From positions 1 through 11,954 of the forward strand of contig JABLTI010000083.1 in the NCBI GenBank assembly GCA_013166835.1: a stretch of DNA of 11,954 bases. The letters run 5' to 3'. The DNA is from Promethearchaeati archaeon (GTDB lineage: Archaea > Asgardarchaeota > Heimdallarchaeia > JABLTI01). This document shows, piece after piece, positions 1 through 11,147 of the stretch. Below the pieces are notes generated by a model, which ran no database searches, had not been told where the DNA came from, and worked only from the letters and a program-made list of their open reading frames with translations. A program made the translations under genes and the position numbers. Numbering within the stretch: the stretch's first letter is position 1; each line of letters opens with the position of its first letter.

Positions 1-1683
1 TTGTAACATAACATCGGGATTCTTTGTTTGTTTTGTCGCATCTAGTAAAAAGAGAATCTTTACTTTCCTTAGCTTTCTGATTTTTATTATATCAGAGAAA
101 TAGTCTTTCAAAGCTTGATCAGGATTAGGTGAATCTTTTGGATTAATCACAATGATATAACCATCAGTAATTTTCTTGAGATATGCTAAGATATTCACAT
201 TAGGTTCTAATAGGGTCCGTGAATTCAGGTTTAGGAATTTGATATTTCTTTTGAAAAGTGAATTATCTCTCTCAGGATTAAATGTATACGTCTGAGAGAT
301 TTTCGGATTAATATCTGACGGTTCTTTTGTGTTAGTTTTTGAATACTCCTTGAAATAGGTATCAAGTATTCTTCCATATCCTGCTTCTTGTAAGTGTAAA
401 GCATTTAGTGTGAACAAGAGCATTTTATTTGAATTATCAGTTCCTAGTATTGCAATATTTCTAAAGTTGCGTTTCTTCGTTGCCCAGATAATTGAAAGTA
501 GTATTACTAAAAAGGCGTACAAGGCAGGTATTAGCTTCAAGAAAGCTACTAATTCTAAATTCAATAAATCTAGCAAATCCCAGAAATTCACGAAAATAAT
601 CAATACAGCTAATAAACTAAAGAGAAGCAATGTTTGCAAAAGTATTTTCCAATTACTCAATGGAAGATTTATTCTAGTATTCATTGCATTTCTTAGTGTT
701 CCAAAAGACCAAAAGGTTGCTTTTTTCTTCTTCTTTATAGGATATACTATATCTACTTTGGAAATTGGAATGACTTTGAAAGTATCTTTCTTAAACAAAA
801 CTTCCCCACCTGATGATTGCAACTCATCGAAGAGATGATCTCTCGCAACTAAGCTCTCACCAATTTTGTCTCTCATTTGCTTGTTCAAAAAACCAAAAGA
901 ATCTTTCACGTTCTCCTTTGTAAGGACATTGAAATCCAGATCGAATTCATCTTTTTTTCTGATTGTTTTGTAGAGTCTATGGATTTTCCCTGGAAATGGA
1001 TCGACCACATCTTCTTCTATATATTGATAAACATAAGTGTAAACATCCATGTCAAAGAAAACAAGGCTACCATCTCCATCGCATTTTGGACAAGTTATTA
1101 GACCAGTTCCATAACATAAGGGACAAGTTACTTTGCCATCACCATCACACTCGGAGCAATTCCCACTAAAACACGATGAACAATCAACTTCACCAGATCC
1201 ACCACACCAGGTGCAATCATCATCCATAATGCAAGAACAACTCTCTTCCCCACTACCCCCACAGGATGTACAATTACCATCTCCGCCACATTCTGGGCAA
1301 GTTACCTGTGTTTCTCCTGAGCATTCTGTACAAGTAACATTTAGAGTCCCATCGCATCTATTGCAGATTTTATCTCCAATTGTTCTTCTCAAGGGAAAAT
1401 TTTGGACTTGATTTCTAAATTTGGTAGGACGAATTGGTTTTGCTTCATCGTAGAATCTTATTTTTGACATATGAGACCGGGGTCTCTCAACAAATACCCT
1501 TTCATAAAATTCGCTTTCAGCATCAACACGGATAATTAATCCAATTAAATCATCCACATTTTTGATAGCAATATCCTTCACTAAATTGTGTCTATGAAAT
1601 AATCGTGATTTCAGAGAATTGCTAAGATTAGTTTCTGCCAAATAAAATTGAAGAATACTATCGTTAGTTAACTCTTCAGTCAT
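1..1683 (-). CDS. Partial (C-terminus beyond left edge) multi-domain membrane protein: DnaJ/SSUH2-like CxxC zinc-finger array + 2 TM helices + degenerate P-loop GTPase-like domain
   Basis: Manual translation from ATG (cat at 1681-1683) gives 561 codons with no stop down to position 1 (MTEELTNDSILQFYLAETNLSNSLKSRLFHRHNL...KILFLLDATKQTKNPDVMLQ). It is preceded by GGTGAGAAGGAAGTAAA (archaeal SD-like). It has 9 CxxC + 1 CxC motifs at aa107-201, hydrophobic segments at aa~346-368 and ~378-401, and NIAILGTDNSNKM at aa409-421. Confidence 0.92.
   Translation of the reverse strand, partial: MTEELTNDSILQFYLAETNLSNSLKSRLFHRHNLVKDIAIKNVDDLIGLIIRVDAESEFYERVFVERPRSHMSKIRFYDEAKPIRPTKFRNQVQNFPLRRTIGDKICNRCDGTLNVTCTECSGETQVTCPECGGDGNCTSCGGSGEESCSCIMDDDCTWCGGSGEVDCSSCFSGNCSECDGDGKVTCPLCYGTGLITCPKCDGDGSLVFFDMDVYTYVYQYIEEDVVDPFPGKIHRLYKTIRKKDEFDLDFNVLTKENVKDSFGFLNKQMRDKIGESLVARDHLFDELQSSGGEVLFKKDTFKVIPISKVDIVYPIKKKKKATFWSFGTLRNAMNTRINLPLSNWKILLQTLLLFSLLAVLIIFVNFWDLLDLLNLELVAFLKLIPALYAFLVILLSIIWATKKRNFRNIAILGTDNSNKMLLFTLNALHLQEAGYGRILDTYFKEYSKTNTKEPSDINPKISQTYTFNPERDNSLFKRNIKFLNLNSRTLLEPNVNILAYLKKITDGYIIVINPKDSPNPDQALKDYFSDIIKIRKLRKVKILFLLDATKQTKNPDVMLQ
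1069..1365 (-). repeat. Protein-level tandem CxxCxGxG zinc-finger repeats (10 units)
   Basis: CNRCDG, CTECSG, CPECGGDG, CTSCGGSG, CSC, CTWCGGSG, CSSCFSG, CSECDGDG, CPLCYGTG, CPKCDGDG, all read in frame on the minus strand. Confidence 0.9.
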
Positions 1684-1939: not shown

Positions 1940-2998
1940 TTGACTGATCAGAAAAGCAAATCAAAGGAATTCAAAAAATTCGAGTTTTATTTCTTTCGAG
2001 ATGTTGATTTAACAAAGGATTTGTTTGTTATACTTGATCCCTCTACAATTGATGATTTAAACGAAGAAGAGAAAATCTTAGCAGAAAATATGCTAATTGA
2101 AGCACTGGAATCCAGGATAGATAAACGTTGGCTTTTTGGGTTAGAAGAAATTGAGTCAGATAAAGCGTATGAATTCTTGTGGAAGCTGTTTAATCGAGAA
2201 AAAAACACCTACGATAAATGTCGAATAGCATTTTCTCTTGTAAGAATAGATGCTGGAGCTCAAGTACTGGACTATTTATTTGAGGTAATAAAATCAGAAG
2301 AAAATGAGCAAGTCAAAGAAAAAGCTCTAAGCCCATTATATTGGAACAAGGAAATCCGCTACGAAAATGAAGAACTAAATGAATTATACCTGACAATTCT
2401 TCATACGGCCATGCTAGATAATTATGAGAGAATCCGTTCTTATGCTTATTCCATTTTAGTGGAATATTATAATATGGGACAGTTTCTTCCATCGAATGAC
2501 CCATATAAGAGTATCTTCTCTGAACTTCGACCAAAGGAGGATTATCAAGAAGCAATTCAACAATTCCAAGAATTAGTTGATTCCAAACAAGAGTTTCCAT
2601 TCTCTAGGAAATTAGTTCATCAATCGATAAAGGAATTACCTGATAATCCACCAACAATTAATCTCAAAGATTGTGAGATTTGTAGTCAAATACCGGACAA
2701 AAGCTATGCAGATATAACTGATGGAAAATCATTGGACAATTATACTTCAAAACTAGAAACGGTTATCATAATTGCTTATTATAATGACTGTATTAAGCGC
2801 TGTCCTATTTGTGGAAGATTGTATGTATATGATTATCATTACGAGTATTTTGTCAATAGTCAAAGTGAGGAAGAAGAGGAGCTAATAAGAACTGATACGA
2901 AGGGAGCGATTGCTAAGATTGATAAATTTATCAAGCAAGGTTATGAATTTAAGAAGATCACTAAATGTGGCATTTTTTTGAAAATCAATTATAGATAG
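1940..2998 (+). CDS. Hypothetical protein: N-terminal HEAT/PBS-lyase-like helical repeats plus C-terminal CxxC...CxxC zinc-binding domain
   Basis: 352-aa ORF with TTG start after GAGGGA. Amphipathic helical repeats (AYEFLWKLFNREK..DKCRIAFSLVRI; VLDYLFEVIKSEENEQVKEKALSPL; LHTAMLDNYERIRSYAYSIL). CEIC at aa245-248 and CPICG at aa288-292. Confidence 0.8.
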   Translation: MTDQKSKSKEFKKFEFYFFRDVDLTKDLFVILDPSTIDDLNEEEKILAENMLIEALESRIDKRWLFGLEEIESDKAYEFLWKLFNREKNTYDKCRIAFSLVRIDAGAQVLDYLFEVIKSEENEQVKEKALSPLYWNKEIRYENEELNELYLTILHTAMLDNYERIRSYAYSILVEYYNMGQFLPSNDPYKSIFSELRPKEDYQEAIQQFQELVDSKQEFPFSRKLVHQSIKELPDNPPTINLKDCEICSQIPDKSYADITDGKSLDNYTSKLETVIIIAYYNDCIKRCPICGRLYVYDYHYEYFVNSQSEEEEELIRTDTKGAIAKIDKFIKQGYEFKKITKCGIFLKINYR

Positions 2999-3104: not shown

Positions 3105-5615
3105 ATGGGTAAATCTTTACCGAAAATTATAATGATTATAGCACTGATTTTTAGTAGTTTTTTAATGTTTAATACTGTGAGTTATACAACTTCTGCTAAT
3201 AATACCGATCAAGAAATAAGTTTTAGCAGTCCCAACAAAATAATAGACAATGAATTGGTTATGACAGATTTCCAGGTTACACCTTACGAGAAATTTCTTG
3301 GATCAGAAGCTGCGAGAACAGGACCTCAAAGCTACGCTGTGATTCTATGTCATTTTTCCGATTATGGACAAAGATGGACACAACCTGAACATGAGGACAT
3401 AATGCAGACAATTGACGATTACTGGGTAAATGCTACTTATGGATTAATGTCGATTGATTGGGTAGTTGAAGGATGGTATGATTTAGGACACAATCTGGCA
3501 CATTACGGGCATCTTAATGCTTGGAATTCTTTAGTGTTTGACATAAATTGGCATAATCTCGTAGATGATGCTGTAGATTTAGCTGATGGAGATATCAACT
3601 TCGCAAACTATGATAATCTCATTATCATTCTTGGTGACATTTGGTGGCGTGGAGTAAGTACGCTTGGTACCCAGGTCAATATAGATACAGATGAAGGAAA
3701 TTTCAATAAAGAAGCGACAGTAGTTGGTGAACAAGATACAGACCCAATTGAAGTAGTATGGGGTCGAATAGCTCATGAAATGGGTCACTGTTTTCTCTTG
3801 AGACACACTCATGGTTCAGGAGGAACTCAGAAGAATTATGCTAGTTATTACAGTTTAATGGCTCGAGCATACCCATCTGCTTGTAATGTCTACACTCAGC
3901 TCATCGATGATTATGCAGGTTGGTTTGATGTAGCTAATAATCAAGTTGAAATTGCTGGTGGAGGAGGAGGAACCTATCATGTTAGACCTCGGCATCTGGA
4001 TATTACTGGTGATATACAAGCTTTGAAAGTTTCAATTTCATCCACAAAATATTATCGTGTTGAAGTATGCGAACAAGAATCAGAAGATGCTTGGTTACCT
4101 GATGAAGGAGTGCTTATTTACCTCGTTGATGAAGGAGCAAATGATAATGATGAGTGTACAGATGAGGATAGTACACCAGGTTCAGATCCTGATGCAGTTG
4201 ATGATTTACTAGATTGTTTGTATGATGTCGGTCAAACATTCACTGATACTGGAAATGGTATTACTATTTCTATGGATAGTTTTTCCTTTGATGGATATGA
4301 CATTACTGTGACAAATGCTGCAGGAGGAACTCCTGATTTAATGATAAATGAATGGGGTAATCCCCCTGGTTCTCCCGGACCATATGAATCAATAGATATC
4401 CACATTGATAGTCCAGTGAATGGATGGAATTGGTATAGACATAATGATGGTAATGGTAACAACCCAGTAGGAAATGGTGATGATCCACTTCTAAATCATG
4501 CGAATAGGCTTCATGCGAAAATCAATAATATTGGTGATGCTGATGCTAGTGGTGTGATTGTAAGATTTTATGAGAACACCCCTATTGGTGCTGGTGCAAG
4601 TGGTTCCTGGAGTCTAATTGATACCGTAACAGGTCTTACAGTAGTTAAAGGAACAACACAAGATATTTATGTTGACTGGACCCCTACCCATTCTGTCTCA
4701 CCAACAGATTCCGGAATTATGGATATGCACTCTTGTGTAAAAGTCGTTATTGAGGATCACATATTAGAAGACAATACCGGAAACAATGACGCTCAAGAAA
4801 ACATTGATTTCTTTGAAGTTGTATCAGGTTCCCCACTGCCAGGTTACATGAATGCTGAAGCTTCCTATGGTTCTGTAAGCAAAGAATTCACTATTGTAAA
4901 CCCTTGGAAAGAAGCAAAAGAAATCCATATCAATGTTCTCGGCGTTACAAACGATTGGATAGTAACTGGAAACGGTATAGGTGAGTTCCATAATTTTTCA
5001 GCAAATGAAGCAAAAGTATTCAATATAGTAATAACACCTGGTCCAGACGCTCGAATTACCGATACAGTGCAAGCAGACCTCGTAGCATCAACGAATGTTA
5101 TTTACGATGAGGGTGACGAAACTTTTGTGGGAGATATGCATCTCACGCCATTTGGAGGAGTAACACTTACTGCAACTATTATGTATCGAAGTAGTCTGAA
5201 TATTGATGCAACAATCAGAGATGAAAATTTCTTTACAATCATCGGGGAACTTAGTTTCTTAGAAGACGTACCACAGCAACATTTACCTCAAGCCGAAGGA
5301 GATCGCACAGTCTATATTATAGTTGAGGAAGTTAATACTGGTGAAAAAACTCCTACTACAGTTGTATCAGATCCATATGGTGATTTTCAGCTAGAAGTCA
5401 GCGGTAAGTCAGGTCTATTTGCAATCAATGTTTACTATGCAGGCACTGGATATGTTACCAGTAGTGCATCAGTGACTCTTATGGTGGACTTAAACGCAAG
5501 CTCAGTTTGGACAAGTACCAGATCCGGTTTATTCCCAGGATTTACTTTCTATCTCACGCTAAGCGGAATGGTCTCTATGTGTGTAATCGTTATTCTAAAA
5601 CGCAAGAGAAAATAA
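3105..5615 (+). CDS. Secreted, C-terminally anchored zinc metalloprotease (M6/immune inhibitor A-like domain + CARDB/Ig-like domains + PGF-TM-basic tail)
   Basis: N-terminal signal peptide. M6-type motifs: VILCHFSD, YWVNATYG, HEMGHCFLLRH (aa224-234), Met-turn YSLMA, YYRVEV...DAWLPDEGVLIYLVDE. CARDB-like segment NRLHAKINNIGDADASGVIVRFY...NNDAQENI. C-terminus FPGF + hydrophobic helix + KRKRK. Confidence 0.88.
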   Translation: MGKSLPKIIMIIALIFSSFLMFNTVSYTTSANNTDQEISFSSPNKIIDNELVMTDFQVTPYEKFLGSEAARTGPQSYAVILCHFSDYGQRWTQPEHEDIMQTIDDYWVNATYGLMSIDWVVEGWYDLGHNLAHYGHLNAWNSLVFDINWHNLVDDAVDLADGDINFANYDNLIIILGDIWWRGVSTLGTQVNIDTDEGNFNKEATVVGEQDTDPIEVVWGRIAHEMGHCFLLRHTHGSGGTQKNYASYYSLMARAYPSACNVYTQLIDDYAGWFDVANNQVEIAGGGGGTYHVRPRHLDITGDIQALKVSISSTKYYRVEVCEQESEDAWLPDEGVLIYLVDEGANDNDECTDEDSTPGSDPDAVDDLLDCLYDVGQTFTDTGNGITISMDSFSFDGYDITVTNAAGGTPDLMINEWGNPPGSPGPYESIDIHIDSPVNGWNWYRHNDGNGNNPVGNGDDPLLNHANRLHAKINNIGDADASGVIVRFYENTPIGAGASGSWSLIDTVTGLTVVKGTTQDIYVDWTPTHSVSPTDSGIMDMHSCVKVVIEDHILEDNTGNNDAQENIDFFEVVSGSPLPGYMNAEASYGSVSKEFTIVNPWKEAKEIHINVLGVTNDWIVTGNGIGEFHNFSANEAKVFNIVITPGPDARITDTVQADLVASTNVIYDEGDETFVGDMHLTPFGGVTLTATIMYRSSLNIDATIRDENFFTIIGELSFLEDVPQQHLPQAEGDRTVYIIVEEVNTGEKTPTTVVSDPYGDFQLEVSGKSGLFAINVYYAGTGYVTSSASVTLMVDLNASSVWTSTRSGLFPGFTFYLTLSGMVSMCVIVILKRKRK

Positions 5616-5745: not shown

Positions 5746-7755
5746 GTGAAGAAAAAACAGATATTGAAATTTAGTGTCTTAGTATTATTTATTCTATTTA
5801 GTAATTTACAAATTATCTCAAAGAATGAAAACCATTCAAATACAACAACTAGCACCAGTCCTGTGACTAAAATCACACCTAATAATGGACCTGCAGATTG
5901 GTTATTGATGTTTTACTTAGATGGTGATCATCAATATGAGCATGCTATTATTGATGCTTTAAATGAATTAGAAGTAGGTTATATATTAACGGGAGAAGTT
6001 GAAGTACTCATAATGGTTGATCGTCATAATGAATATGACAAATCAGCTAGTAATTGGAATGGAACGAGATACTATCGACTTCTACCTGATAGTGATCCTA
6101 TGATTATAGGTTCTGAGTTGCTTCTAGATTTAGGGGAAGTTAATATGGGCGACGGAGCAACATTAAGGAATTTCGTAGTTTGGGCCCAAGGATTAGCTTC
6201 AGCAGAAAAACAAGCATTAATTATACTTGATCATGGTGAAGGATTAACTGGTATTAGTTGGGATTTTACTTCAGATCGTGACTACATAACTCCCAATGAA
6301 TTACAAGAAGCCATGAATGGCTTGCATGTTGATTTACTTGTCACAGAGGCATGTAGAATGGGTTACGTAGAAGTCGCTTATGAGTGGCGAACGTTTACAG
6401 ATTATATTGCCTTTTCTCAAAATACTATGTTAATCGAATCACTTGATTATGATGCAGTGATCAGTGAATTATGTTTAGACCCAACTATCATGCCTTGGGA
6501 GCTAGGTGAAATTTTCGGAACTACCTATTTGGGATTATATGCTTACTGTACTTTCCAAACATTTTCAGTAATTAATTGTACATTGTTAGCATCCCTTGTT
6601 GAAGCTCTCTCAAATCTTAGTTTAGAATTAATTGATATGCTCCCAGGAGATATCTTGAACTTGTCAGCAATACGTTATGAATCAGATGAATTCTCATTAA
6701 GATCAGTTGATATTGGAACGATGATAGAAGTTTTCCAAGTAGAATTTCAAGATAATTTAGTTGTCAAAAACATATTAGATGAATTTGAAACAATTTATGA
6801 AGAAGCTATTTTGTATAATTTTAATTCCCCTTATTCACTGAATAAAACAGGCATGAGTTTGTTTTTCCCAATAGATAATAGAACAATTTCTCCTTGGGAA
6901 CAATATGTTAATTATACTCATCCAGGAGACTTAACAAACCTAGATTTCCTCAATGATACCTCTTGGGATGAATTCTTAATTGAATATGAATCTCATGCTC
7001 CATTCATACCTCTTGAATCTCAACCGACTCAATGGTTATCTTTTAACAGGGATTATCATCTAGAACTCACTGGAAAAGCAGCCAAAATATTCATTCTCAC
7101 AGTTGATATGCCAGCAATCTATAATTTCACACTTACAGTTATTAGTGGTGACATGGGTTTCTCACTGAAAAACTATCTTGGTGATTCTGTGTTTAAGTCG
7201 GATTATATGTACGCAGATCTTGTCAATCCAGAACAAGGAAATACGGAACAAATTATTCACTTTCTGAAACCTGGAATTAGTTTTGTTTTTATAAATTCTT
7301 TAGGAAATGCTTCAGGGATTTTTCATGCAACACTAACAAGAACAACTGAGATTTTGTATGACCAAGTTGTGAGTGGAGATTTCTTACCAGCTGATGGTTT
7401 AAATCCTCCAAGTGCTGTTGCCCATTATTACTCAATTTATTTAGATCCAGGGACATATGATATTGTGGTAAATACATCTTGGCCAGTGGGATTAGAAGTA
7501 GAAATTATTAATCACCGTAATTACTATATTGTTAATCATCGTTACGGAATTCCTGGAGCTAATTTCAGTTATCAGCATGAAATGTGGGAAAAGAGGTTTC
7601 TTGTAATTGGTATTGGTTCTTATACTGGTACAGGTTCATTTAGTCTAATAATTGTGGGGCATGCAGTAGCTATACCAAAATTAACATTTATTGTAGTTCC
7701 TTTTGTACTTCTTGTGTTAATAACCATAAGGTTTCGAAGAAAATATAACAAATGA
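5746..7755 (+). CDS. Clostripain-family (C11) cysteine peptidase, secreted and membrane-anchored, with C-terminal beta-sandwich (PPC-like) domains
   Basis: Signal peptide. C11 motifs WLLMFYLDGD, GEVNMGDGATL, LIILDHGEG (His163), DLLVTEACRMGYVEVAYE (Cys203), GMSLFFP, WDEFL. Beta-rich region with YYSIYLDPGTYDIVV. C-terminal TM + RFRRK. Confidence 0.88.
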   Translation: MKKKQILKFSVLVLFILFSNLQIISKNENHSNTTTSTSPVTKITPNNGPADWLLMFYLDGDHQYEHAIIDALNELEVGYILTGEVEVLIMVDRHNEYDKSASNWNGTRYYRLLPDSDPMIIGSELLLDLGEVNMGDGATLRNFVVWAQGLASAEKQALIILDHGEGLTGISWDFTSDRDYITPNELQEAMNGLHVDLLVTEACRMGYVEVAYEWRTFTDYIAFSQNTMLIESLDYDAVISELCLDPTIMPWELGEIFGTTYLGLYAYCTFQTFSVINCTLLASLVEALSNLSLELIDMLPGDILNLSAIRYESDEFSLRSVDIGTMIEVFQVEFQDNLVVKNILDEFETIYEEAILYNFNSPYSLNKTGMSLFFPIDNRTISPWEQYVNYTHPGDLTNLDFLNDTSWDEFLIEYESHAPFIPLESQPTQWLSFNRDYHLELTGKAAKIFILTVDMPAIYNFTLTVISGDMGFSLKNYLGDSVFKSDYMYADLVNPEQGNTEQIIHFLKPGISFVFINSLGNASGIFHATLTRTTEILYDQVVSGDFLPADGLNPPSAVAHYYSIYLDPGTYDIVVNTSWPVGLEVEIINHRNYYIVNHRYGIPGANFSYQHEMWEKRFLVIGIGSYTGTGSFSLIIVGHAVAIPKLTFIVVPFVLLVLITIRFRRKYNK

Positions 7756-9325: not shown

Positions 9326-10210
9326 ATGGAAATTTTTAATGTAACAAAAAACATAGTTGTTGCTAATACATCAAATATAGGAAGTAATATTGTTTGTGTA
9401 AACACTACTGATGGTCTCATCTTTGTTGATACAGGACTAATAGTTGAAGAAGTAAAGAAATTCAGACAAGATATGGAAAAGAAATTTGGGAAGAAGACTA
9501 TTTCTCTAATTTTAACTCATGCGCATCAAGACCACATATTCGGGATGAAATCATTTTTTGATGTTCCAATTATAGCAACTCAAAAGTGCAAGGAAAAGAT
9601 CAAAGAGAGATTAGCTACTGATTTCGCTGGTGATGGTATTAGAAAAATTTTAAATAATTATTCAGAATTCAAAGAGTATTTCGCTAATATGGGTATATCG
9701 GAAGACGAAATAGCAGAAGTTGTGAATCAAACAGATATTGTTGTTGAAATTCCTCAAAAGGATTTCACAAAGGAATTAGCAATTGGAACTAAAGAAAATA
9801 AAATAATCATCACAATCTCCGGTGGTCACTCACTTGATTCAGCGACTGTTTATCTTCCTTCTGAAAAAGTTCTCATAACTGGTGATGAATTTTACCATTC
9901 ACAAGTTCCATTATTGGCAGGAGCACCAGAGAGTCACGAAAATTGGTTGAAGGCACTCAAGAGCTGGGAGAAATTAGATGTGGACATTGTTATTCCAGGA
10001 CATGGTTCTCCTATTGATTTTGAGTATGTAACGAATGCAAGGAAATTTGTTGAAAAAACCTTCAAAATTGTGAGAGAACTAAAAGAGAAAAATGTCAAAG
10101 TGGATGAAGTAATCAAAGACAAGAGATTAAAGGAATATTATGGAAAATCCAATTGGAAAGATCCATCTTGGTGGAAAGAATCACTGAAAGCACTATATCA
10201 AATATTATGA
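9326..10210 (+). CDS. MBL-fold metallo-hydrolase (cyclase/glyoxalase II-like)
   Basis: VDTG, THAHQDH, GGHS, TGD and PGHG motifs. GGGAGA RBS, and TTTTATC TATA-like element at 9274-9280. Confidence 0.9.
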   Translation: MEIFNVTKNIVVANTSNIGSNIVCVNTTDGLIFVDTGLIVEEVKKFRQDMEKKFGKKTISLILTHAHQDHIFGMKSFFDVPIIATQKCKEKIKERLATDFAGDGIRKILNNYSEFKEYFANMGISEDEIAEVVNQTDIVVEIPQKDFTKELAIGTKENKIIITISGGHSLDSATVYLPSEKVLITGDEFYHSQVPLLAGAPESHENWLKALKSWEKLDVDIVIPGHGSPIDFEYVTNARKFVEKTFKIVRELKEKNVKVDEVIKDKRLKEYYGKSNWKDPSWWKESLKALYQIL

Positions 10211-10223
10211 GAGAAAAAATGAA

Positions 10224-10254
10224 GATTTTGTCAATCGGTATTTTTGACAAAATC
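10224..10254. terminator. Perfect 11-bp inverted repeat between convergent genes, possible bidirectional terminator
   Basis: GATTTTGTCAA (10224-10234), 9-nt loop, TTGACAAAATC (10244-10254). Confidence 0.55.
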
Positions 10255-11134
10255 ACTTTCGACGTCTTCTAATTATAACAGATACAATTATGATTGCACT
10301 AAAAGCTGCGAATGAAATATAACACTCGAATCCAGGTAATCCAACAGGTTTATCGAAGTAAAACGCAGGAAGAGCATATCCATTAATCGTTACTTCTTGA
10401 TTCAGTATCATTTCAAAATTTTGACCTTCAATAACACCGTCATAATCTAATTCAAGTCGATATCCTTGCATAACACCTGTAGTTTTATCAAAGGCAATTT
10501 TGAATCGTTCATAACCCTCTAGCAAGAAATTGTAAGGTGCAGTATAGTTAAGAGTTCCATCAACTATCCAGTCAAAAATCGCAACAGTTCCAGTTTCATC
10601 AAAATTTCCATCTATTTGAGTGAAAGTATGTCTTGGATCAGCAGCAATTGGAGACCAATACGATGAATTCGCATAAAATCTAAAGTGATCGAGGATAGCA
10701 TGTGCAGTATCAAAGAAGAAATAAAAATGCACAGTAGGTCCTAAATCAACAGTTTCTTGCGACCAAGTAGTAGCATAAACCACAGCATGCTGAACTATGT
10801 ATAATAGTAGAGATCCTAATTGAAACAAATCAGTATCATCATTTTGATATGCAAAAACAAATGATCCTACAGTTAAATTCCATGAAACACTAGTGTCGGG
10901 AATAACATCTGTTACTTCTACTGTGAAGCTTGTTCCCTCATCATAGGAATCCAAAACAATTAGGCATTTTGATACTGAACCACTATTATCACCAAGTTTG
11001 ATACTCCAATTTGAAGTATTCACGTTATAGGTAAAAGTCTCGCCAATAGAGACTTGATAATCCCCTTGTACTAATGTTGTACTTAGGATTAAGGCTATTA
11101 CAAATGTTGGTATTAGAATATTTATTTTCCTCAT
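10253..11134 (-). CDS. Cell-surface protein with signal peptide and PGF-TM-basic anchor (resembles Asgard 'choice-of-anchor S'-type proteins)
   Basis: Start moved to ATG 11134 (MRKINILIPTFVIALILSTTLVQG), because the track's GTG at 11146 lies inside the GGGGTG RBS. Mature N-terminus DYQVSIGETFTYNV, internal motif FDKTTGVMQGYRL, C-terminus LPGF-hydrophobic-RRRRK. The family name is from recollection, not from a search. Confidence 0.8.
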   Translation of the reverse strand: MRKINILIPTFVIALILSTTLVQGDYQVSIGETFTYNVNTSNWSIKLGDNSGSVSKCLIVLDSYDEGTSFTVEVTDVIPDTSVSWNLTVGSFVFAYQNDDTDLFQLGSLLLYIVQHAVVYATTWSQETVDLGPTVHFYFFFDTAHAILDHFRFYANSSYWSPIAADPRHTFTQIDGNFDETGTVAIFDWIVDGTLNYTAPYNFLLEGYERFKIAFDKTTGVMQGYRLELDYDGVIEGQNFEMILNQEVTINGYALPAFYFDKPVGLPGFECYISFAAFSAIIIVSVIIRRRRK

Positions 11135-11147
11135 ATTTAGGCCCACC

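Follow-up and report, generated by a model that had tools for sequence, protein, structure and literature searches.

The closest described counterparts of the gene considered here are the DO-GTPases (PF19975 and PF19993; Kaur, Burroughs, Iyer and Aravind, eLife 2020, PMC7159879). According to the sections of PMC7159879 that deal with these systems, two paralogous GTPases are encoded together and thought to dimerise, N-terminal zinc ribbons occur in 60% and transmembrane segments in 13%, a glutamate is conserved in the Walker B motif, a GAP1 protein is encoded downstream, and there is a link to prokaryotic ubiquitin-like conjugation. A second point of comparison is the class i pseudoGTPases of eukaryotes, such as the N-terminal domain of AAGAB (PMC12490416) and domains of p190RhoGAP (PMC5593906), which in the passages of these papers on the domains concerned keep the fold and have lost the G motifs; such a domain serves as a protein-binding module in a larger protein, and AAGAB acts on adaptor subunits of membrane trafficking (PMC12490416). 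Here we analysed a stretch of 11,954 nucleotides from a Promethearchaeati archaeon (contig JABLTI010000083.1 of assembly GCA_013166835.1; the whole stretch is called the window below), whose positions 1 to 1,683 carry, on the minus strand, most of a gene for a membrane protein with a GTPase-like domain at its C-terminus.

The gene and its relatives resemble the DO-GTPase systems, as those sections of PMC7159879 present them, in divergent G domains of the TRAFAC class, in membrane association and, at loci of the relatives, in two paralogues per cluster of which one has a zinc ribbon, in a conserved non-GTPase protein encoded downstream and in a ubiquitin-like link. There are also differences: the domain and its fused homologues have no Pfam DO-GTPase match, the second G domain forms the C-terminal end of a large membrane protein with zinc knuckles, the P-loop is degenerate in three lineages, the hosts are Asgard archaea rather than bacteria, and the adaptors carry UEV and EAP30 or HEAT and ubiquitin domains, with no GAP1 domain detected. 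With the class i pseudoGTPases the window domain shares a G fold (here taken from the model of a homologue) with lost G motifs. Proteins such as AAGAB may offer a functional analogy, but there is no sequence relationship, and the window domain is archaeal, tethered by a membrane hairpin and presumed, rather than known, to have lost nucleotide binding.

The reading that we prefer, and hold to be fairly probable, is that the gene encodes a membrane protein of 614 amino acids (aa) whose pseudo-GTPase tail would serve as a nucleotide-independent docking module.

Degenerate G boxes in the C-terminal domain

The earlier note, made from the letters of the window, had read four strings of the translation as altered G boxes of a small GTPase, and a script check of the translation located all four at exactly the residues that it gave. 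With alignment A5 (10 sequences) we mapped them onto the model of a homologous domain, where they fall on strand beta1 with the P-loop, on beta3, on beta4 and on beta5. The features are as follows (positions in the window).

1-477, minus strand: C-terminal GTPase-like domain, aa 403-561, continuing to aa 614 on contig C160; from alignment A5, the P0089 model, structural searches and dN/dS
412-459, minus strand: strand beta1 and P-loop, NIAILGTDNSNKMLLF, aa 409-424; string located by script and placed through A5
421-444, minus strand: remnant of G1 (Walker A), GTDNSNKM, aa 414-421; Gly414 and Lys420 kept, Asn419 replacing the second Gly and Met421 replacing Ser/Thr
220-246, minus strand: beta3 and remnant of G3, NIKFLNLNS, aa 480-488; Asn485 at the place of the Walker B Asp of Njord-type homologues (IIDLKS)
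139-183, minus strand: end of helix alpha2 and beta4, YLKKITDGYIIVINP, aa 501-515; from the model and the A5 alignment
31-60, minus strand: beta5 and place of G4, KILFLLDATK, aa 542-551; no [NT]KxD, with an alignment register uncertain by one residue

The order and spacing of the boxes, which had been taken as TRAFAC-like, agree with the modelled strands, and the proposed loss at G1, G3 and G4 is borne out: Asn replaces both the second Gly and the G3 Asp, Met replaces Ser/Thr, and an NKxD is lacking. For G1, GxxxxGK[ST] is absent from the window sequence (GTDNSNKM) and present in three homologues, P0089, P0090 and P0091. For G3, the window has NLNS in place of DxxG, and the Njord-type DLKS keeps the Asp without the Gly. 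For G4, neither the window (LLDATK) nor the Njord-type sequences (YNEDI, YNADV, YNKET) show [NT]KxD, with the register uncertain by one residue. In the fused domains the acidic Walker B position is D, N, S or Y. Because the four strings fall on modelled strands and the homologues carry GxxxxGKT at the position of GTDNSNKM, this is more than a chance resemblance of motifs.

Homologues with intact and degenerate P-loops

The domain belongs to a tiny family without a Pfam model. Profile A3, built from the C-terminal domains of five orthologues, found two clusters at E <= 0.001 among 1.84 billion representatives, the window protein's own and that of P0088 (612 aa, from the window's genus), and a word-index search with the P0088 domain found P0088 alone. 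In 400 genomes of the same phylum, A3 matched four: three of the window's genus, which counts 11 genomes (the window's own genome, G000, included), and a fourth, G288, at E 0.002. The wider profile A5 also matched G119, a genome of another Asgard family (E 2.6e-12, a protein of 713 aa); five of the 10 genomes matching A5 at E <= 0.01 (those five at E 1.6e-4 to 9e-3) were dropped as false, the matched open reading frames (ORFs) having no Walker A motif. In total, copies of the same architecture are found in 5 of the 400 Asgard genomes (G000, G081, G083, G288 and G119). Literature searches returned no title or abstract that describes the family; the architecture is not described in the passages of PMC10936438 and bioRxiv 10.1101/2024.02.28.582541 that were found by term search.

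The check that the earlier note had proposed, whether homologues keep GxxxxGKT, had a positive outcome. P0089 (619 aa, from G288, a metagenome-assembled genome of Njordarchaeota) has the same architecture with GPAKIGKT and IIDLKS where the window protein has GTDNSNKM and FLNLNS, and P0090 and P0091, from two metagenome contigs and again of the same architecture, read GPTKTGKT and GPPKTGKT at the GTDNSNKM position. The G3 Asp is also kept by these Njord-type homologues (DLKS). BLASTP aligned P0088 with P0089 at E 2e-57, unbroken from the N-terminal domain through the hairpin, the P-loop and beta3, and an hhalign comparison of the window and Njord groups gave E 2.3e-4 over 110 columns; the alignments of this study are shallow (3-10 sequences), and by these comparisons the homology of the two groups is secure. 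With its canonical P-loop and its Walker B Asp, the Njord-type branch probably binds a nucleoside triphosphate (NTP).

The degenerate form is not confined to the window's genus. In G119 the motifs are GEDETNKM and FLNLSS, next to GTDNSNKM and FLNLNS in the window, in domains that are 21% identical overall, and since such similar motifs recur in a different Asgard family, the degenerate state is old and maintained. A further protein, P0008 (670 aa), is alike in its N-terminal part (E 1e-33) and has a C-terminal domain with GDDEQLSF, in which the Walker A Lys is gone, and a Gly at G3 (YVSG). BLASTP does not align this domain, and hhalign gives 18.6% probability with E 0.0013 over 125 columns, so its homology to the G domain is weakly supported and taken as probable. 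PseudoGTPases have mostly been described in eukaryotes; the archaeal family here has intact and degenerate forms in one architecture, so that two recombinant domains would allow a direct test of the presumed loss of nucleotide binding.

Fold of the family

We modelled the domain of P0089 (aa 446-619) with AlphaFold2 from the 10-sequence A5 alignment, which includes the window domain, and obtained a mean pLDDT (predicted local distance difference test) of 87.0 and a pTM (predicted template modelling score) of 0.85; this confident model is that of a homologue 25% identical to the window domain, not of the window sequence. It shows a P-loop fold of three alpha/beta layers, in which an antiparallel beta2-beta3 hairpin lies beside beta1, features that are placed in the window sequence by alignment alone. 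In a Foldseek search of the PDB with the model, EF-Tu, Rab6, RhoA, Rab4a and RagD were on top (E about 1e-6), and Ras, Ran and EF-G were also found. A structural search of 48,161 chains that is independent of Foldseek gave DiRas1 first (Z 14.0, root-mean-square deviation (rmsd) 2.5 A over 139 residues), and Rab6 (13.7), Rab28 (13.4), RagD (13.3) and an Asgard RagA-like protein (LokiRagO, 8yl2; 11.7) were also matched, these Ras-superfamily proteins being aligned over 135-141 residues at rmsd 2.5-3.0 A. Among the best 50 rows of this search, every chain named by its title is a G domain. The structural check suggested before, when carried out on the P0089 domain, thus put G domains at the top of both searches. 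Despite this likeness, the family has no detectable sequence similarity to Ras-superfamily proteins, and its model has an additional short strand and a helix inserted after alpha1 and before beta2. The family is assigned to the TRAFAC G-domain fold on the model, and the window sequence through the A5 alignment. Together with the intact P-loop of the homologues, the G-domain matches back the proposal of a small-GTPase fold with degenerate G boxes.

It is very improbable, in our judgement, that the GTPase likeness comes from a chance pattern of strands in another Rossmann-like fold, for instance a CheY-like or flavodoxin-like one. Such an origin would agree with the lack of a significant sequence match of the window domain to any GTPase family, with weak CheY matches of the Njord-type profile over 34 residues (E 0.15) and with the lack of a confident model for the window's own domain, but it leaves unexplained the perfect GxxxxGKT directly after beta1 in the homologues, the hairpin and strand order that fit G domains with Z 11-14 over 127-150 residues without any named non-GTPase in the best 50 rows, and the profile similarity to stand-alone GTPases that have G1, DxxG, [ST]KxD and S[AS]. 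PACRG, CheY, ASK1 and Cas7, which came up as candidate PDB relatives with profiles A3, A4 and A5, were set aside as noise (E at least 0.15 in all cases).

Selection on the domain

For aa 403-561, the window gene and its G083 orthologue differ with a ratio of non-synonymous to synonymous substitution rates (dN/dS) of 0.136, compared with 0.130 for the whole protein; these values are rough, with dS at 0.56 in the C-terminal segment and above 1 in three others. The amino-acid identity of this segment, 84%, is the highest of the five segments of the protein. The C-terminal domain is under purifying selection and is the best-conserved part of the protein. Besides, all five full-length orthologues (P0002-P0005 and P0088) are free of frameshifts and stops.

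These values speak directly to the idea that the domain is a decaying relic without a function of its own, carried along by a zinc-finger membrane protein. The loss of the G motifs fits that idea, as do the many bacteria and archaea in which the base architecture exists without the C-terminal domain (P0007, P0011) and the lack of the relatives' operon partners among the genes found in the window's genus (G000, G081, G083). A relic is hardly expected to show the dN/dS and the identity given above, to be intact in five of five orthologues and to recur in the same degenerate form in a distant Asgard family, and we regard this explanation as highly unlikely.

A probable docking module, or an unusual switch

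In P-loop NTPases, the Ser/Thr of the P-loop and the Asp of Walker B hold the Mg2+. We infer from the sequences that the branch of the window has lost its Mg2+ and phosphate ligands (Asn in place of the second Gly and of the Asp, Met in place of Ser/Thr, and NKxD absent). The pseudo-GTPase docking reading follows because these ligands are gone, yet the domain is the best conserved part and under purifying selection. The gene product would be a cytoplasm-facing membrane protein of a Heimdall-type Asgard archaeon. Its parts are an N-terminal domain, a zinc-knuckle array, a middle domain, a hairpin and, at the C-terminus, a G domain of a small, uncurated TRAFAC GTPase family, and the fold of this domain would have been retained for protein-protein contacts, as a docking module held at the membrane. 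In relatives the partners would most likely be the active GTPase of the same operon, a protein of 304-310 aa and a ubiquitin-related adaptor; there the tail may pair with the active GTPase, in the manner of the paired DO-GTPase paralogues. In the window's genus, the protein may work alone or with unlinked partners, because the partner genes were not found there.

Several points weigh against the docking reading, in addition to the rough dN/dS and the use of a homologue's model. A full-length AlphaFold2 model with the window sequence as target (6 sequences) reached a pLDDT of 31.6 and is unusable. The window protein has no match in Pfam, NCBIfam or PADLOC, and profile searches of the PDB (A3, A4, A5) gave nothing below E 0.1. 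Profiles of the partner families P0092 and P0093 have no credible match in G000, G081 and G083, genomes that are 85-90% complete. Even the branch with the intact P-loop has neither DxxG (DLKS) nor NKxD (YN[EAK][DE]). Lastly, the Gly and Lys that are retained and the N-K-M that is common to two Asgard families could form a non-canonical ligand site.

The last point leads to a rival that we consider unlikely, though less so than chance or decay: the domain would be a working nucleotide-binding switch with an unusual P-loop, in which Gly414, Lys420 and the N-K-M bind a nucleotide or phosphate ligand and either need no Mg2+ or rely on a partner for the missing ligands. The Walker A Lys and the first Gly are retained in 7 of 7 confidently aligned sequences with a degenerate loop (P0002-P0006, P0088 and G119), the window and G119 have the same N-K-M even at such low identity of the domains, and purifying selection acts on the domain. 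Against it, three independent ligands of Mg-NTP (second Gly, Ser/Thr and Walker B Asp) have been replaced together, and the constraint on the loop is not uniform: P0088, from the same genus, has Ile before and after the Lys, and P0008 is without the Lys.

The gene and its division between two contigs

The window is the entire contig C220 of assembly G000, which consists of 260 contigs and is 84.75% complete. From window positions 1-1683, 561 residues are translated on the minus strand with no stop before the window edge, and the ORF runs off at position 1. The first 144 nucleotides of C220 are the reverse complement of the start of contig C160 (100% identity), and the reading frame runs 53 codons further on C160 before it stops, which gives 614 aa. 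A database protein, P0002 (614 aa), covers these 561 residues at a listed identity of 100%, although residue 288 was read as different, and the related genome G083 carries the genes of C160 and C220 in one piece and in the expected order. Because of the overlap, the continued frame, the database protein and the gene order in G083, the gene has 614 codons and is split merely by an assembly break. The C-terminal domain that the earlier note had described is therefore only partly encoded in the window, its last 53 residues lying on C160. The gene and the other parts of its product are these (window positions unless stated).

1-1683, minus strand: codons 1-561 of the 614-codon gene; the remaining 53 codons, with the stop, on contig C160, L002/L020 nucleotides 145-306, plus strand
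1369-1683, minus strand: N-terminal domain, aa 1-105, common to a broad family of membrane proteins with zinc fingers in bacteria and archaea, without known function
1069-1365, minus strand: array of DnaJ-type (CR-type) zinc knuckles, aa 107-205, with 9 CxxC, 6 of these CxxCxGxG
655-1068, minus strand: middle domain, aa 206-343, conserved together with the zinc-finger part in homologues without the C-terminal domain
478-654, minus strand: two hydrophobic helices, about aa 344-367 and 375-401, with a short acidic loop between them and Lys/Arg-rich flanks (Kyte-Doolittle scan)

The helix pair is predicted to form a membrane hairpin with both large parts of the protein in the cytoplasm, a topology suggested by the positive-inside rule. 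The knuckle array recalls the DnaJ/BSD2-type CR zinc fingers (PF00684, PF25436), with which it shares the repeated CxxCxGxG; P0089 passes the cut-off of Pfam DnaJ_CXXCXGXG (PF00684; 39.7 against 32.7 bits) and the window protein stays under it (7.2 bits). Unlike DnaJ/BSD2-type proteins, the present ones have no J domain, and the array lies inside an architecture of N-terminal domain, middle domain and transmembrane helices that is widespread in bacteria and archaea. Proteins made of the first four parts without the C-terminal domain are common in both (e.g. P0007 and P0011), and therefore the C-terminal domain, of about 210 aa, is an addition.

Placement between Ras-like GTPases and DO-GTPases

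To place the domain we compared it with Ras-family and DO-GTPase families. Pfam PF00071 (Ras) exceeds its cut-off at 30 places in the 3.56-Mb G000 assembly, and the window gene is not among them; hhalign of A5 against 12 Ras-family paralogues of G000 gave 1.5% probability (E 0.034, 30 columns). Several of the PF00071 matches in G000 lie inside ORFs of 333-566 aa, i.e. in multidomain GTPases.

With five stand-alone GTPases (P0092, its relatives from G119 and G288, and two from G000 contig C130), which carry canonical G1, DxxG, [ST]KxD and S[AS] motifs, hhalign of the fused family (A5) gave 81% probability and E 1.2e-5 over 120 columns, from G1 to alpha3; with P0092 alone (profile A4) the match is weak (22.5%, 37 columns), and 81% is reached only with the five-sequence alignment. 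One of the five, of 292 aa and from C130, scores 29.7 bits with Pfam DO-GTPase1, whose cut-off is 27 bits, and the other four are below. The DO-GTPase scores of the GTPases found beside the fused genes are 21.8 against 27 bits for P0092 and 16.6 for the G288 fragment, and the G119 GTPase has no match. The Pfam DO-GTPase models (PF19975/PF19993) do not match the window or G119 domain, and the family searches of five genomes miss the window gene. In a protein-language-model search, DO-GTPase2 clusters were nearest to the window domain (0.89, 168 of 256 features), which we take as a lead only. By these comparisons the nearest detectable relatives of the domain are stand-alone DO-GTPase-like GTPases, not the Ras/Rab/Arf-like ones that are plentiful among Asgard genomes, and membership of the DO-GTPases is not claimed. 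Profiles A9 and A10 found no match in the PDB.

On C130 (G000, 33000-48000; L062 2860-8146, minus strand, and 9631-10785, plus strand) the stand-alone DO-GTPase-like genes form a tandem of 292 aa and 267 aa, the latter below the cut-off. The pair is followed by a protein of 1182 aa with a sub-threshold GAP1-N2 match (21.5 against 24 bits), and its divergent neighbours are a MIT+AAA (Vps4-like) ATPase and coiled-coil ORFs.

Operons of the relatives

In relatives the gene lies in a conserved cassette, found in two distant Asgard lineages at these loci.

L027, 3-8519: conserved cassette
L040, 906-8712: conserved cassette
L023, 1-3480: conserved cassette
L026, 2-3243: conserved cassette

In the Njord-type loci L023, L026 and L027, a gene of about 283 aa directly upstream encodes EAP30 (over the cut-off in three of three) and UEV (below it in three of three) domains, and it is preceded by a conserved protein of 310 aa, P0093. 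L027 alone among the Njord-type loci extends further upstream, and it has in addition a ThiF E1-like gene and the gene of P0092, a stand-alone GTPase; the order is P0092, P0093, the UEV+EAP30 protein (P0094) and the gene itself, with stops and starts that overlap or abut. In G119 a zinc-ribbon GTPase, with 35% identity to P0092 (E 1.6e-45), is followed by a homologue of P0093 (E 8e-24), by a protein with HEAT and ubiquitin domains and then by the gene itself. A ThiF gene lies on the opposite strand, as do two Prok-JAB genes, of which one exceeds the Pfam cut-off and the other just exceeds it. An ORF of 554 aa in L027 has sub-threshold JAB matches only (E 0.08-0.1). The P0093 family (304-310 aa) belongs to no known family and lies downstream of the GTPase in the cassette; it has no GAP1 Pfam match, and hhalign found no match to the GAP1-N2-like protein of C130. 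Its by-eye pattern of strands and helices with D-x-x-GRP had suggested a longin/roadblock or GAP1-N protein, for which Pfam and hhalign give no support.

Two GTPase paralogues per cluster are thus present in G119 and L027, and they were found neither beside the window gene nor, with profile A9, in G000, G081 and G083. The active GTPase that the earlier note had thought possible beyond the left edge therefore has a counterpart in the G119 and L027 operons and is not supported for the window's genome, by the genes of C160 and by the profile searches of the three genomes.

Two larger interpretations bear on these operons. Firstly, the family might be the membrane arm of a biological-conflict (immunity) system of DO-GTPase/GAP1 type coupled to ubiquitin-like conjugation, and not part of trafficking or ESCRT, with the window copy a stranded remnant; we regard this as tentative. 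The G119 and L027 cassettes share the layout of DO-GTPase systems as given in PMC7159879, DO-GTPase2 is nearest in the language-model search, and the divergent ORF upstream of the window gene has a weak LmuA/DUF4297 match. However, no cassette GTPase reaches the Pfam DO-GTPase cut-offs, P0093 shows neither a GAP1 match nor profile similarity to the GAP1-N2-like protein of G000, PADLOC finds nothing in P0002, P0089, P0008, P0007 and P0011, and the Njord-type adaptor is UEV+EAP30, a domain pair of ESCRT-I/II type. Secondly, and as a speculation of about the same standing, the relatives may encode a previously undescribed Asgard four-gene module, made of an active DO-GTPase-like switch, a conserved partner of 304-310 aa, an adaptor that reads or bears ubiquitin (UEV+EAP30 or HEAT+ubiquitin) and a zinc-knuckle membrane protein with a second G domain as its tail, that would couple a GTPase pair to ubiquitin-dependent membrane events, either ESCRT-type sorting or immunity. 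The membrane-bound G domain would have become a pseudo-GTPase in several lineages, and the window copy would be a membrane receptor half that outlived its operon. Such a module, if true, would be an archaeal example of the pairing of active and dead GTPases known from eukaryotes. Operons of two distant Asgard lineages in which a GTPase is combined with domains of the ubiquitin system and of ESCRT type bear on how GTPase signalling at membranes and sorting linked to ubiquitin, or immunity, were wired in the closest archaeal relatives of eukaryotes. The window itself holds an orphan copy, which is a more modest result.

Surroundings of the window gene

Beyond the left edge of the window, C160 carries the remaining 53 codons of the gene, a zinc-ribbon ORF of 44 aa and the convergent gene of an Fe-S protein. 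The small ORF (L002 314-448, minus strand) has two CxxC pairs and weak zinc-ribbon matches, and lies between the gene's stop and the convergent 4Fe-4S protein. There is no GTPase, roadblock or longin gene near the window gene, so the search for an adjoining roadblock or longin gene, also proposed earlier, came out negative; its surroundings consist of a conserved divergent ORF of 352 aa, secreted peptidases and unrelated enzymes.

The divergent upstream ORF (window 1940-2998, plus strand) is 90% identical in G083 and has no Pfam family; its PADLOC match to LmuA/DUF4297 is weak (E 6.7e-5, 20.5 bits), and a match to RAP80 UIM is insignificant (E 0.084). Three further genes probably encode surface proteins. 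One, at 3105-5615 (plus strand), resembles an M6 metalloprotease and has a stretch similar to CARDB and a tail similar to Heimdall/Loki-CTERM, with all these matches below cut-off; a second, at 5746-7755 (plus strand), is a C11 peptidase of the clostripain family (Pfam, 103 bits); and the third, at 10253-11146 (minus strand), is a choice-of-anchor S protein (257.7 bits) whose tail resembles Heimdall-CTERM.

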